NCBI GenBank assembly: GCA_965219685.1
Contig: CBDCOH010000002.1
Coordinates: 2,496,001-2,560,000, forward strand
Source: Candidatus Spongiisociaceae bacterium
GTDB lineage: Bacteria; Actinomycetota; Acidimicrobiia; Spongiisociales; Spongiisociaceae
DNA: 64,000 nt
Reading direction: 5' to 3'
Shown: positions 1-4,316 of the stretch, in pieces
Numbering within the stretch: position 1 is the stretch's first letter
How the letters are laid out: each line of letters begins with the position of its first letter
Notes under the pieces: model-generated
What the model was told of the DNA's origin: nothing
Databases searched by the model: none
What the model saw: the letters and a program-made list of their open reading frames with translations, nothing else
Translations under genes and position numbers: made by a program

Positions 1-195
1 ACCACTTCTGCCGGTGTTTCTGGGAGGGTGTGGTGGTTGAGCTGGCTGGCCGGTGAGTACTGATGGCACCCGGAACGTTGATTCCTAGAGCTAGAGCGTA
101 CCCCGGCCGGTTCGCGAGGGTGCTTGTAGCGCTCATGGGGTGTCGTGCCGTAGAGCACTGATCCATTAGGTCGCCGCCGGGTGTCCCTCGAAGCT
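1..195 (+). ncRNA. Putative IS110 bridge RNA (5' stem-loop, target-binding loop, donor-binding loop)
   Basis: Stems 48-60/98-108 and 115-126/178-190, with internal hairpins 72-85 and 145-158. TGGGGTGTC at 136-144 is identical to the right end 1470-1478; AGCTAG at 89-94 is the reverse complement of 1478-1483. Confidence 0.75.
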
Positions 196-236
196 CTCTG
201 ACAATGTTTTGGGACTGTTTCTGAAGGAGGCAGCAG

Positions 237-1457
237 ATGATCTTTGTGGGAGATGACTGGGCTGAGGCGCATCACGATGTGTGTCTGATGGACGAGGCGG
301 GAACTCGGTTGGCTGGACGGCGGCTGCCGGAGGGCCTGGCGGGGGTGGCCCAGTTGCATGAGATGATCGCCGAGCACACATCGGATCCGGCCGAGGTGGT
401 GTTAGGCATCGAGACCGATCGGGGCCTCTGGGTCGGTGCTCTGGTCGCAGCGGGCTATCAGGTATATGCGATCAACCCCAAGGCGGTGTCCCGTTACCGG
501 GATCGGCACAGCATGGGCGGAGCGAAATCAGACCGTGGCGATGCCAAGGTGTTAGCCGATCTGGTACGAACCGACCGTCACAACCATCGTCCCGTGGCCG
601 GGGACAGCCCAGAAGCGGACGGGATCAAGATCATGGCCAGAGCGCATCAGAACCTGAAATGGGCCCGGGTGCGTCACACCAACCAGATGCGCAACGCCCT
701 CCGCGAATACTATCCCGCAGCGTTGGAAACGTTCGATGACCTGGCCCATCGCGACGCCCTTGCCGTCCTGGGCAAAGCACCCACCCCCACCCTGGGCACC
801 CGCCTGACACTGCCCCAGATCAGAGCAGCCCTCCAGAAAGCCGGGAGGCGACGCAACCTCGACAAGGTTGCCCGCCGCATCCAGAAAGGCCTCAGAGGTG
901 CCCACCTCACCGCACCGGAGCCGGTTGAGAACGCACTCGGGACAACAGTTGCATCACTGGTCAACATCATTGTGGAAACCAACCACCAGATCGAACAGCT
1001 CGAGCAAACCCTCGAGACCCGTTTTAGAGAACACCCGGACGCCGTCATCTACCACTCCCAGCCAGGACTCGGTACCGTGCTCGGCGCCCGGGCGCTCGGT
1101 GAGTTCGGGGACGACCCCCAACGCTACACCAGCGCCAAGTCTCGCAGGAACTACGCCGGCACGTCGCCCATCACCATCGCATCAGGCCGCAAACACGCCG
1201 TCACGGCCCGCCACGTCCGCAACCGGAGACTCTACGACGCCCTCGACCAATGGGCATTCTGCACCCTAACCCGAAGCCCAGGCGCCCGAGCCTTCTACGA
1301 CCAACGACGAGCAGCCGACGACGAACACCACCAAGCCCTCCGAGCCCTCGCCAACCGACTCGTAGGCATCCTCCACGGCTGCCTCAAACACCGAACCCCC
1401 TACAACGAACACACCGCCTGGGCCCACCGAACCGCCCTCGACCGAGCCGCAGCTTGA
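237..1457 (+). CDS. IS110-family DEDD recombinase/transposase
   Basis: FVGDDW, GIET, AKSDRGDA (RuvC-like DEDD); PGLG; YAGTSP..ASG catalytic Ser loop; RALANRL; RBS AAGGAGG. Confidence 0.95.
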   Translation: MIFVGDDWAEAHHDVCLMDEAGTRLAGRRLPEGLAGVAQLHEMIAEHTSDPAEVVLGIETDRGLWVGALVAAGYQVYAINPKAVSRYRDRHSMGGAKSDRGDAKVLADLVRTDRHNHRPVAGDSPEADGIKIMARAHQNLKWARVRHTNQMRNALREYYPAALETFDDLAHRDALAVLGKAPTPTLGTRLTLPQIRAALQKAGRRRNLDKVARRIQKGLRGAHLTAPEPVENALGTTVASLVNIIVETNHQIEQLEQTLETRFREHPDAVIYHSQPGLGTVLGARALGEFGDDPQRYTSAKSRRNYAGTSPITIASGRKHAVTARHVRNRRLYDALDQWAFCTLTRSPGARAFYDQRRAADDEHHQALRALANRLVGILHGCLKHRTPYNEHTAWAHRTALDRAAA

Positions 1458-1543
1458 CATTTACGCTCCTGGGGTGTCTAGCTAGCTCATCGTGGTCGTC
1501 GTGGTCGGTCCTGGCTCGGTAGTCGAGTACCCTCCGGAGTTAC

Positions 1544-1613
1544 CACCATTCACCATTCACCATTCACCATTCACCACTCACCACTCACCACTCACCACTC
1601 ACCACTCACTAAC
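1544..1613. repeat. Heptamer tandem repeat (CACCATT)x4 (CACCACT)x5
   Basis: Read directly; abuts a TAACCT -10-like box at 1610-1615. Confidence 0.95.
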
Positions 1614-1621
1614 CTTAGGGT

Positions 1622-2584
1622 ATGCGAAGGTTCACGATTGACCTGAAGGGACCGTTTCACGGGATCGAGTTCGGTGGCGAGGGCCGGCTGGTGCTCCTCG
1701 TGCATGGTCTGAGCGGATCGGCCGTCAATTGGGTGGAAGTGGGGGATGGACTGACTGTCTACGGCAGAGTCGTTGCGCCCGAGCTCCCAGGATTCGGACG
1801 CACTCCCCCGGCCGGGCGCCGTGCGTCGATCGAAGCGCAGGCGGAGATCTTGGCCGAGTTCATTCGGAGGCAGTCGGACAGACCAGCTCTCATCGTCGGC
1901 AACTCGATGGGGGCGATGGCCGCAATGATCCTGGCGGGACGTTATCCCGAACTGGTGAAACGGCTCGTGCTGATCGATTCACCAGCGCCATCACCCTCCG
2001 CTATCGGCATGGCGCCGGTGTGGATGCTGGTCATGGTCCTGTACCTGATCCCCGGGCTGAACAAGGCCTTGCTGACCTGGATGCACAGCCAGGGCTCACC
2101 CGAGGAGCGCACGGAGGCGGGAATAGACCTGATCGCCGCCCGTGCCGACCGCATCCCCAGATCGACGCGCCTCCTTCATGCCCAAGTGACTGCCGAGCGC
2201 AACATGATGCCGTGGACACACGATGTGCACCTCGAGGCTTACCGCTCGATAATCCGGACCCTTGTCCCCTACTCGCGCTTCGACCAGATGGTGCGTCGGA
2301 TCACAGTACCGACCCTTCTGATACACGGGACCACGGACATCGTGGTACCGGTAGCAGCGGCCGAACGCCTAGCCTCCCTTCGTCCCGATTGGACCTACCG
2401 ACCGTTGGTGGATACCGGGCACATCCCCATGATGGAGTCCCCCGAGTTGTGCCTGGAGTTGATCGGCGAGTTCATGGCGGCGACGGGACTGACTCCGGAA
2501 CATGGAACCGGCAGCGTGGCAGCCGTCAGCCATAACGGCGCCGCCGACTCCAATCCAGAAAGCGTTCGAGCGGCCAGGTATTAG
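1622..2584 (+). CDS. Alpha/beta-fold hydrolase, probably leaderless
   Basis: LVHGL, PGFG, GNSMG nucleophile elbow, HG..D.VVP, GHIP. Confidence 0.9.
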   Translation: MRRFTIDLKGPFHGIEFGGEGRLVLLVHGLSGSAVNWVEVGDGLTVYGRVVAPELPGFGRTPPAGRRASIEAQAEILAEFIRRQSDRPALIVGNSMGAMAAMILAGRYPELVKRLVLIDSPAPSPSAIGMAPVWMLVMVLYLIPGLNKALLTWMHSQGSPEERTEAGIDLIAARADRIPRSTRLLHAQVTAERNMMPWTHDVHLEAYRSIIRTLVPYSRFDQMVRRITVPTLLIHGTTDIVVPVAAAERLASLRPDWTYRPLVDTGHIPMMESPELCLELIGEFMAATGLTPEHGTGSVAAVSHNGAADSNPESVRAARY

Positions 2585-4316
2585 CGATCCGGTCCCGCTC
2601 GAGCCAGCCTCGCTGAGCCTGGCGGACTCCCCATTTCGACTGCTCCAGTTCCTCAACGCGGTGGGCGTCGGTCGAGATGACGAGATGGACCCGACGGGTT
2701 CGCGCCCGTGATAGGACCTCGACCGAGGCGTCGAGGCGGTCCAAGTGGGAGTTGATCTCGATGGCGGTCCCGGTCGCCTCCGCCGCTTCCAGCACCGTTC
2801 CCAGGTCGAGGTCGATCCCGGGACGGCGGCCGATGCGGCGACCCTGCAGGTGACCGATCACATCGACGGCCGGGTGCCGGATGGCCTTCACGACACGGGC
2901 CGTCTGATGCCCGATCGGCAGGTCGAAGTAGCTGTGCACCGAGGCGACGCACCAGTCGTAGTCCATTAGGAAGTCATGGTCGTAGTCGAGCGAGCCGTCC
3001 TTGCCGATGTTGAGCTCAACTCCGTGAAGTATGCGCATCGTGGGGTAGCGCTCCTGGAGGGAGGCGATCCGGCGGCGCTGAGACAGCATCTCCGACCTAC
3101 CCACTCCGTTGATGGCCAGATCCTCCGCGTGGTCGGTGATCGCAACGTACTCGAGACCTAGGGCCGAGGCCTTATCGAGCATCGCCTCCAGAGAGTCGTC
3201 ACCGTCCCCCGACATATCGGTGTGGACATGCAGATCACCTCTGAGATCCCCGTCGACTACCAGATCCGGGAGCCCACCCGACTGGGCCGCCTCGATCTCA
3301 CCGGTATCTTCACGGATGGTCGGAGGTATCCACGGCAGTCCCAGAGCCTCGTATATGCCGTCCTCCGTCTCCTGGGCGACGATCCCCCCACCCTCCGCCT
3401 CGTACAGCGAGTACTCGCTGAGCACCCACCCCCGCTCGATCGCCAGCCGGCGCAACCGGATGTTGTGCTCCTTGGAACCTGTGAAGTACAGCAGCGCAGC
3501 ACCCCACTGCTGCATGGGGACTACCCGGACGTCGACCTGGAGACCCGAATGGGTGAGCATCGATGTCTTCGTGTCCCCCGATACCACCACATGGCGGACC
3601 CAACCCATCTTTACCAGCCGCTGCGTCACCGGCGCAGGATCGGGCGTCGCCACCAGGATGTCGAGATCGGCAACCGTGTCCCGGAAGCGGCGCAGGCTCC
3701 CGCAGTAAGCAGCTTCCTGAACACCGGGCAGCGTCCGGACTTCGGACACGATCCGCCGGGCGAGCCGCATCGCCGCCAGGATCGGAGTCCGGCGGTCCTT
3801 GCCGGACCACCCGAGCCGGTCGATGGCCCGGCGCAGGTTCTCCTCGGTCTTGGGACCGAAGCCGGGCAGTTGCCGGACCGCCTCCGCCTCGAGGGCCACG
3901 ATGAGGCTCTCCACCGAGTCCACCCCCAGGGCCGTGCGCAACATGACGGCTCGTTTCGGTCCCAGGCCCGGAACCCGCACGAGCTCGCGGAAATGGAGCG
4001 GGAACTCCTCCCGGAGTCGATCGAGCCTGTCGATCCGACCGGTCTCGACGTATTCGCGTATGTAGGACGCCGAGGACTTCCCGATGCCGGAGACCCTCAG
4101 CAACTCCCCACCGGACAACCCCGCCACTCGATGGGGAAGCCCCTCGAGAGCCTTGGCGGCCGCCTCGTATGCTCTGGCACGGAAGGACTGAGCGCTGCCA
4201 TCCTTGATACGGGTGAGTAGGGCGAGTTCCTCGAAGAGGGCGGCGACCTCGATGTTGGTCACCAAGACGACCACCCCATCGCTACTCCTCTCCGCACCGG
4301 ACTGAAAGATAGCCAC
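2526..4316 (-). CDS. polX: DNA polymerase X with PHP exonuclease domain (true start probably GTG 4274 or 4262)
   Basis: HhH motifs, GSLRR..DLDIL, VDVR, YFTGSKEHN, PHP motifs HVHT, TDH, GVE, STDAH; overlaps the hydrolase 3' end by 59 bp. Confidence 0.93.
   Translation of the reverse strand: MAIFQSGAERSSDGVVVLVTNIEVAALFEELALLTRIKDGSAQSFRARAYEAAAKALEGLPHRVAGLSGGELLRVSGIGKSSASYIREYVETGRIDRLDRLREEFPLHFRELVRVPGLGPKRAVMLRTALGVDSVESLIVALEAEAVRQLPGFGPKTEENLRRAIDRLGWSGKDRRTPILAAMRLARRIVSEVRTLPGVQEAAYCGSLRRFRDTVADLDILVATPDPAPVTQRLVKMGWVRHVVVSGDTKTSMLTHSGLQVDVRVVPMQQWGAALLYFTGSKEHNIRLRRLAIERGWVLSEYSLYEAEGGGIVAQETEDGIYEALGLPWIPPTIREDTGEIEAAQSGGLPDLVVDGDLRGDLHVHTDMSGDGDDSLEAMLDKASALGLEYVAITDHAEDLAINGVGRSEMLSQRRRIASLQERYPTMRILHGVELNIGKDGSLDYDHDFLMDYDWCVASVHSYFDLPIGHQTARVVKAIRHPAVDVIGHLQGRRIGRRPGIDLDLGTVLEAAEATGTAIEINSHLDRLDASVEVLSRARTRRVHLVISTDAHRVEELEQSKWGVRQAQRGWLERDRIANTWPLERFLDWSRRRRYG

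Follow-up and report, generated by a model that had tools for sequence, protein, structure and literature searches.

The 64,000 nt stretch of DNA analysed here (the window), from Candidatus Spongiisociaceae bacterium (Actinomycetota; Acidimicrobiia), begins inside a mobile element of the IS110 family. The element is very probably a canonical IS110-group insertion sequence (IS) whose left-end transcript is a bridge RNA, and it is intact and apparently recently active. Carrying this assignment are the anatomy and boundaries of the element, covariation within the left-end RNA structure and between its guide and handshake bases and the DNA they face, empty sites in the same genome, and the catalytic residues and predicted fold of the recombinase. 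As every defining feature that can be tested in sequence was found, the element is filed as an IS110-group bridge-RNA element of the IS621 type. A sequence-only reading of the window had proposed the IS621-type architecture, and recombinase, RNA fold, guides, CT core and handshake bases all bear it out.

Boundaries and copies

The window corresponds to G000:C2:2496001-2560000, where G000 is the source genome; the element, of 1,490 bp with one CT core counted, lies at G000:C2:2495990-2497479. Window position 1 is preceded by the left CT core and then by the opening 11 nt of the element, AATGGGGGTCC. The left junction of this copy (copy 1, L001) reads ...ACCACAC-CT-AATGGGGGTCC/ACCAC, the stroke marking the start of the window, and the right junction reads ...TGGGGTGT-CT-AGCTAGCTC. 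A second copy (copy 2, L002), at C2:130180, is 100% identical over the 1,490 bp and has the left junction ...AGGTCAC-CT-AATGGGGGTCC and the right junction ...TGGGGTGT-CT-AGCTGAGCC. Comparison of the two copies, together with the upstream sequence, fixes both boundaries of the element. CT is present at both junctions in 5/5 full copies of the source genome.

The entry of the sequence-only reading began at window position 1; the true start of the element is 11 nt earlier. Its blind prediction of "-CT-AATGG" at the left junction is what the upstream sequence contains. Its left flank of GGCACC holds the correct CAC but is out of register by one base. It had also proposed that other copies and empty sites be compared, and the two identical copies and the unoccupied paralogous sites described below confirm the junctions.

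Non-coding sequence extends over 247 nt at the left end (1-236 and the 11 nt before the window) and over 22 nt at the right end (1458-1479). The termini, AATGGGGG... and ...TGGGGTGT, are not reverse complements as read by eye, no formal inverted-repeat search having been made. The identical copy pair, one member of which breaks a gene, argues for recent transposition; with open reading frame (ORF) and ends intact, the sequence points to an IS110-type mobile element that is apparently recently active. The features are as follows.

1 to 1479, plus strand: IS110-group insertion sequence, in-window part, its limits set by two copies that are 100% identical but lie between unrelated flanks, and by paralogous sites that are unoccupied
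1 to 36, plus strand: 5′ stem-loop of the predicted bridge RNA, its stem starting ∼1-2 nt before the window; minimum-free-energy fold, with compensatory change in 4/6 pairs of helix 1
41 to 115, plus strand: target-binding loop (TBL) stem-loop, outer stem 41-60/97-115, its internal loop split by the hairpin GGAA (72-75)...TTCC (82-85)
63 to 71, plus strand: left target guide (LTG) ATGGCACCC, ATGGCAC plus core-equivalent CC, reading in the sense of the left flank's top strand
86 to 94, plus strand: right target guide (RTG) TAGAGCTAG, reverse complement CT-AGCTCTA; the flanks are CT-AGCTAG and CT-AGCTGA
95 to 96, plus strand: TBL handshake guide (A95, G96); A95 can pair with the donor right-end T just 5′ of the core
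116 to 194, plus strand: donor-binding loop (DBL) stem-loop, centroid fold, 3′ limit approximate, with the hairpin GTGC (145-148)...GCAC (155-158)
136 to 144, plus strand: left donor guide (LDG) TGGGGTGTC, the same sequence as at 1470-1478 in the right end
162 to 169, plus strand: right donor guide (RDG) TCCATTAG, reverse complement CTAATGGA, matching the left end CT-AATGGg
170 to 171, plus strand: DBL handshake guide (G170), pairing with the target C just 5′ of the CT core (CAC-CT)
224 to 230, plus strand: Shine-Dalgarno-like AAGGAGG, 6 nt before the ATG, from the sequence as read
237 to 1457, plus strand: recombinase gene, 406 aa, with a RuvC-like DEDD domain (D7, E59, D99, D102) followed by a long helical region and then by a Tnp domain (S316-G317)
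1454 to 1459, plus strand: TTGACA, candidate -35 box; only the excised circle would complete the promoter, with 17 nt and then TCT/AAT across the junction
1470 to 1479, plus strand: right end, left donor sequence TGGGGTGT plus core CT, from the sequence as read and copy comparison
1480 to 1540, plus strand: the interrupted target, right half, lying within a REP-like intergenic repeat, from unoccupied paralogues in the same genome

Empty sites and insertion context

The flanks of copy 1, 35 nt on the left and 60 nt on the right, are part of a REP-like intergenic repeat. Three unoccupied paralogous sites in the genome (C2:1842071, 3613540 and 886805) read ...GGCTACCACAC-CT-AGCTAGCTCATCGTGGTCGG... 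and give the uninterrupted junction CACAC-CT-AGCTAGCTC, with CTCAT in place of CACAC at C2:886805. The empty sites are thus the two flanks joined through a single CT, which places the insertion at the CT core with no other duplication.

Copy 2 breaks an N6/N4 DNA methylase gene (PF01555, E=1.8e-30). The pieces of the gene are found at L002:784-1488 and 2980-3160 on the minus strand (G000:C2 ∼129.4-131.9 kb), and in silico removal of the copy gives a 296-aa methylase frame that is continuous across the junction.

Copy 1 lies between a gene with a transketolase C domain and an alpha/beta-hydrolase gene, and in a same-genus genome (G007, L089) these flanking genes are 89 nt apart without an IS. 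This locus was rejected as an exact empty site since its intergenic sequence differs, and it is an IS-free locus only; G002 (L090) was likewise rejected as an orthologous empty site, its sequence also being different.

The REP-like repeat is ∼80 nt long, carries the CT target of copy 1 and is found in roughly ten full or partial copies, which include C2:1842071, 3613540, 886805, 3885707, 3844274, 4137816 and 4169483. One REP-like copy, at C2:3481242 on the minus strand, reads ...CCCAC-CT-AATGGGGGTCCACCACTT-CT-AGCTGG...; the left end survives there in its first 18 nt, together with a CT, a pattern expected had an internal CT and the right-end CT been the limits of a deletion that took away the rest of an element.

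Predicted structure of the left-end RNA

A protein-seeded scan of genome contigs gave 80 related loci with amino-acid identities of 59% to 86%. These are mainly from Actinomycetota (metagenome-assembled genomes (MAGs) of Acidimicrobiia, Mycobacterium, Rhodococcus and others), and the closest relative in the scan is in a Candidatus Spongiisociaceae MAG (Acidimicrobiia). The 247-nt 5′ region was found by nhmmer in 86/87 loci. Of 76 distinct upstream regions, 70 were used for alignment; L002 and L005 (the same elements as L001 and L004 except for the flank), L006 (an internal fragment), L046 and L050 (near-duplicates of L041 and L049) and L068 (a weak 5′ match) were dropped.

The single-sequence fold displays a 5′ stem-loop, a stem-loop split by GGAA...TTCC and a stem-loop split by GTGC...GCAC, and RNAalifold on the 70 upstream regions recovers all three modules. 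The fold z-score of the single sequence, -1.1, is unremarkable; comparative covariation is the decisive evidence for an RNA. In a structure of 42 pairs and seven helices, 95.4% of cells in the 70 sequences are paired, vs 29-49% when the partners are slid by 1-3 columns. Compensatory changes are present in 27/42 pairs, a number reached in 0/500 shuffles. TBL helix 3 alone shows compensatory change in 11/14 pairs with 98.4% of cells paired, the TBL hairpin helix in 3/4 pairs and the DBL outer helix in 6/8 pairs; the DBL hairpin is invariant in 70/70. Sequence varies across the family in the first internal loop and hardly at all in the second.

Target guides and the core

Guides were taken from fixed columns of alignment A2, with a register slop of 1 nt in a few loci (e.g. 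L034 and L085) that can only lower the match counts. L037, L047 and L068 have no guide calls, and guide and flank observations were de-duplicated before counting. The left flanks of the two identical copies are ACCACAC-CT and AGGTCAC-CT. Family-wide, the LTG matches the left flank at 4.95/7 positions vs 2.33 when permuted (n=62), and the RTG matches the right flank at 4.33/6 vs 2.27 (n=57); neither value is reached in 5000 permutations (0/5000). With one observation per distinct guide, 41 LTGs give 4.61 vs 2.24 and 35 RTGs give 4.49 vs 2.08, again with 0/5000 in both cases. The match is best beside the core, where left-target positions -3 to -1 score 0.87, 0.82 and 0.97 and positions farther out 0.53-0.63; on the right side matching reaches ∼5 nt from the core.

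A paralogue in the same genome with 83% identity (L003) carries the loop GGATGCTCCT and has GGATGCTC-CT as its own flank; on its right side the guide CT-ATGTTC faces the flank CT-ATGTTT.

The RTG motif xAGA is TAGA in 56 of the 70 loci, GAGA in 6, AAGA in 4 and CAGA in 4, and the match to the flank at the variable position is 0.96. As the base after the core covaries, the core is CT and not CTA. The last two LTG bases in the 70 are CT (48), CC (8), CA (6), CG (6) and TT (2). The ideal target of the window element is ATGGCAC-CT-AGCTC.

These results refine the sequence-only reading. All the motifs that it named are where it placed them: in the first loop ATGGCACCC at 63-71, GGAA at 72-75, TTCC at 82-85 and GAGCTAG at 88-94; in the second TGGGGTGTC at 136-144, GTGC at 145-148, GCAC at 155-158 and TCCATTAG at 162-169; and at the right end TGGGGTGTC at 1470-1478, CTAGCT at 1478-1483 and CTAGCTC at 1482-1488. 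Its left guide, read as ATGGCACC plus CT, was in the wrong register, the actual guide being ATGGCAC plus the core, with CC as its own core equivalent. In its target, ATGGCACC-CT-AGCT, the CT-AGCT side holds and the left register falls with that of the guide. Its core of CT(A) is correct in CT, and the A is a programmable position that covaries in the RTG. The covariation that it anticipated among homologues is present in the stems and, on both sides, between guides and flanks, above 5000/5000 permutations. It had described the protein as a new programmable recombinase ortholog; a new member it is, and programmability is suggested by the natural covariation of guides and targets.

Donor guides and handshake bases

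The donor guides were predicted to match the element's two ends, and they do: the LDG matches the right end at 9/9 positions, core C included, and the RDG the left end at 7/8, pairing contiguously over 7 nt. In the family, the LDG followed by T is found downstream of the ORF as an exact match in 53 of 82 loci and with one mismatch in 17; in 12 it was not found within one mismatch. The RDG is TCCATTAG in nearly all loci, and CTAATGGG, with one mismatch allowed, is at the left end in 73/85 loci.

The handshake bases, which follow the RTG and the RDG, are a concept taken from IS621 (PMC11208158; Hiraizumi et al. 2024), and the logic of loops and strands follows PMC11208160 (Durrant et al. 2024). 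In the TBL, the handshake RNA base A is opposite a donor T in 70/70 loci, and this invariant pair is uninformative for covariation. In the DBL, the handshake base and target position 7 form a Watson-Crick pair in 67/68 distinct guide and flank observations, as G:C (48), C:G (14) or U:A (5).

The recombinase

The ORF is intact and all catalytic residues are present. The protein matches PF01548 (DEDD_Tnp_IS110, E=9.9e-37) and PF02371 (E=6.5e-10), and its sole PDB sequence match is the IS621 transposase (8wt6_A, E=1.7e-5). Residues D7, E59, D99, D102 and S316-G317 align with D11, E60, D102, D105 and S241-G242 of IS621, which are the residues named for that enzyme (PMC11208158; Hiraizumi et al.). 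In 68 distinct full-length homologues, the DEDD residues are conserved in 68/68, S316 in 67/68 and G317 in 68/68.

An AlphaFold2 model built on a 37-sequence alignment has a mean pLDDT of 79.3 and a pTM of 0.68, with low confidence in the loop 304-317. The top ten Foldseek matches of the model in the PDB are exclusively chains of ISCro4/IS621 synaptic complexes (E 2.4e-10 to 1.8e-9, target-normalised TM 0.56-0.63, identity 16-17%); the next matches are Nop5/Nop56/58 and TIGR-Tas, at E>=7e-6. The model has extra helices at ∼160-219, between long helices at 125-158 and 228-265.

On the minus strand at 1058-1139, antisense to the best-conserved part of the Tnp domain, there is a match to the Rfam family Ms_AS-4 (RF02464, "Actinobacteria sRNA") with 79.8 bits against a gathering threshold of 50. 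This Rfam family may simply track IS110-type transposase coding sequence.

Proposed mechanism and expression

By analogy with IS621, excision would join the right end to the left end as TGGGGTGT-CT-AATGGGGG. The circle junction would place TTGACA 17 nt upstream of TCT/AAT and so could drive both the bridge RNA and the recombinase. The left-end transcript, of ∼190 nt, is predicted to fold into the 5′ stem-loop, the target-binding loop and the donor-binding loop. The circle junction would be bound in the donor loop by TGGGGTGTC and TCCATTAG, and the chromosomal site ...CAC-CT-AGCT... in the target loop by ATGGCAC(CC) and TAGAGCTAG. A recombinase tetramer (D7/E59/D99/D102 plus Ser316) would then cut after CT and exchange strands, aided by the handshake bases A95 and G170, and the element would come to be inserted at CT with only the core duplicated. 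Transcription, use of the promoter, the RNA 3′ end, RNA-protein binding, the chemistry and reprogrammability are features that we infer for this element.

TTGAC is present in 70/70 loci with a located right end, with a spacer to TCT/AAT of 17 nt in 23 loci and 18 nt in 47. Its putative promoter role at the circle junction follows the IS621 model (PMC11208160). Since the motif overlaps the stop codon, its conservation is not purely promoter-driven.

Public sequencing runs were consulted as assembled Logan contigs, which carry no transcript starts, ends or strand. One RNA run (X17) covers L001 at 2532-2980 only, the 3′ part of the gene, at a depth below 10, and speaks neither for nor against expression. 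Two skip joints, 1509->2999 in X1 and 1491->2999 in X5, were rejected as evidence of an empty site or excision, as paralogous repeat copies or variants explain them; the X1 joint is accounted for by the footprint site at C2:3481242.

Weighing of the alternatives

Several observations weigh against the assignment to a canonical bridge-RNA element. For the element itself, the match of guides to the two insertion sites is only 4/7 and 5/7 on the left and 4/5 on the right, the final LTG base is C and not T, and the whole genome has 0 sites within one mismatch of the ideal 14-mer and 7 within two. On the donor side, the LDG of L003-L005 is one base off the right end, and a sub-clade of L004, L005 and L083 has the RDG TCTGCTAG, the left end still being CT-AATGGGGG (CT-AATGGG); in L083, where the variant RDG is at L083:1403-1445, the ORF is intact and the target guides fit the flanks. 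A scan of window 1-2000 with Rfam 15 (E<=1) gave no family match on the 5′ region, the sole match being the antisense Ms_AS-4 inside the ORF. As to expression, TTGACA overlaps the stop codon TGA at 1455-1457, the junction -10 hexamer (TCTAAT) has no A at position 2, and a sigma-70 and terminator scan of the integrated copy found 0 promoter-like and 0 terminator-like sequences, under a rule that needs A at -10 position 2 and would reject the junction hexamer too. No joint of right end to left end, as in a circle, was seen in the public-run contigs.

The target-side observations could mean that this is a bridge-RNA insertion sequence for which the target choice of this copy came chiefly from a short seed (CAC-CT-AGCT), from the structure of a REP-like repeat or from both, rather than from the full guide, which implies a relaxed half-match or a recognition of sequence plus structure. 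Only CAC-CT-AGCT is common to both insertion sites, guide matching per position peaks beside the core, copy 1 is in a repeat with an inverted repeat (CCGTT...AACGG) just upstream, and the genome is without a near-perfect target. Half-match insertion has been reported for IS621 (10.64898/2026.08.31.748434), and a logic of dual matching of sequence and structure for ISPpu10. Yet copy 2 is inside the methylase gene, without the REP-like repeat, other family members (e.g. L003 and L043) match their sites over 7-10 nt on the left, and seven CACCTAGCT sites in the genome are still unoccupied. We consider direction by seed or structure unlikely. Far less credible, and indeed extremely improbable, is that the 5′ region is merely a structured mRNA leader or a protein-bound DNA recombination site, with the complementarity of loops and flanks being incidental or due to terminal repeats. 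The region is directly 5′ of the ORF and has a Shine-Dalgarno sequence, and the near-invariant DBL sequences cannot alone separate an RNA from a DNA function. But the variable loop covaries with host flanks outside the element, as does the DBL handshake base with the host nucleotide 5′ of the core, and the stems keep their pairing through compensatory changes. A site read by protein only would predict none of these.

That the window copy is a decayed or domesticated relic which no longer transposes is also very improbable. Decay is evident elsewhere in the genome: the paralogues L004 and L005 have ORFs in three frames, and fragments or footprints exist at L006, L007, C2:3481242 and C2:101407. 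Against this, the window copy has an intact ORF with all catalytic residues, and the two copies, identical over their whole length, are in unrelated sites, one of which is a disrupted gene. The preferred reading thus remains a bridge-RNA element of the IS110 group, intact and apparently recently active. A more specific version of it, put forward tentatively and rather doubtful, is that the element belongs to a deep branch of actinobacterial bridge recombinases, at 16-17% structural-alignment identity to IS621/ISCro4 and with an extra helical module of ∼60-80 residues in the coiled-coil region, that it is active in its present host, and that its natural insertions depend on the short core-side seed CAC-CT-AGCT and not on the full guide. 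If this is so, the rules of fidelity would differ from those of IS621, the recombinase would be one adapted to high-GC hosts, and the left-end footprint of 20 nt at C2:3481242 would be the trace of an excision by way of a pseudo-site.

Relation to known systems

IS621 of Escherichia coli also has a left-end RNA with a 5′ stem-loop, a TBL and a DBL (PMC11208160, PMC11208158). As these papers describe IS621, it and the present element have in common a CT core, handshake bases following both RTG and RDG, a TBL that varies beside a DBL that is conserved, the DEDD and Ser residues, the predicted fold and, in the right end, a -35 box (a candidate one in the present element). The IS621 protein has 326 aa vs 406 aa here, and identity in the structural alignment is 16-17%. 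IS621 has a 66-residue two-helix coiled coil (PMC11208158) where the model of the present protein has the predicted extra helices, and its RDG pairing is discontiguous (PMC11208160), whereas that of the present element is contiguous over 7 nt. The present host is a high-GC member of the Actinomycetota.

The best Foldseek match is to ISCro4/IS622 of Citrobacter rodentium (9t56 chains, E=2.4e-10, target-normalised TM 0.63), which has the same system architecture (10.1101/2025.05.14.653916). ISCro4 is near IS621 and far from the present protein (16-17% identity), and it is active in human cells. The IS1111 group, with its seekRNA, has the same recombinase family and RNA-guided logic, but there the RNA is in a long right end and subterminal inverted repeats of 7-17 bp are present (PMC11208160). 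Membership of the IS1111 group was rejected, as the right end here is only 22 nt and the structured, conserved RNA is in the left end; a long left end with RNA and a short right end place the element in the IS110 group.

IS110, IS117, IS900, IS1547 and others are actinobacterial elements of the IS110 family and thus share family and host phylum with the present one. Their insertion is orientation-specific and involves neither inverted repeats nor duplication of the target. Among the IS110-group elements in ISfinder, 85.7% are predicted by covariance models to carry a bridge RNA, and the covariation analysis drew on orthologues in their thousands (PMC11208160, Durrant et al. 2024). With bridge RNAs already predicted in most IS110 elements, the present element is one more example of a known system. 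A literature search found no paper whose title or abstract concerns an actinobacterial bridge RNA. Words beginning with Actinobacter, Actinomycet or Mycobacter occur 0 times in the main texts of PMC11208160, 10.1101/2025.05.14.653916 and 10.1101/2024.06.21.599552, and Streptomyces 0 times in those of PMC11208160 and 10.1101/2024.06.21.599552.

The element is therefore a well-documented natural example and introduces no new principle. Of interest is that one genome holds diverged IS paralogues with differing target loops, each fitting its own insertion site, and that the rules of IS621 (strand logic of the loops, CT core and handshake base) hold over 80 loci at ∼16% protein identity, which supports the generality of bridge-RNA guidance in Actinomycetota. 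A compact recombinase and RNA pair from a high-GC host is a candidate genome-engineering tool for such organisms. For annotation, the assignment explains the site preference for the REP-like repeat and the disruption of the DNA methylase gene.

Other remnants and repeats

Loci L003-L007 are clustered at G000:C2:3.08-3.15 Mb; three are paralogues with 82-83% identity and two are fragments. L004 and L005 are frameshifted pseudogenes in which the ORF is split across three frames, and the right end of L005 carries a short duplication. L007 consists of a left end alone and shares its flank with L003, and the right flanks of L004 and L083 are alike (ATCA.GTCACATCCGCTTCGAAGCC). At C2:101407, on the minus strand, CT-AATGGGGGTCCACCACTTCC precedes a loop and, beyond it, its own perfect 13-nt inverted repeat, GGAAGTGGTGGAC; there is no bridge RNA or transposase behind the CT-AATGGGGGTCCACCACTTCC sequence, which may be a left-end remnant or a miniature derivative.

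CACCTAGCT has 7 occurrences in the source genome vs ∼30 expected by base composition, and the commonest targets in the element family contain CTAG. Right of the element, at 1490-1507, a 9-nt direct repeat, TCGTGGTCG, is present twice, vs only a single unit in the unoccupied paralogous sites. At 1544-1609 a tandem array of 7-nt units (consensus CACCACT, 9.4 copies) is situated upstream of the alpha/beta-hydrolase gene at 1622-2584.

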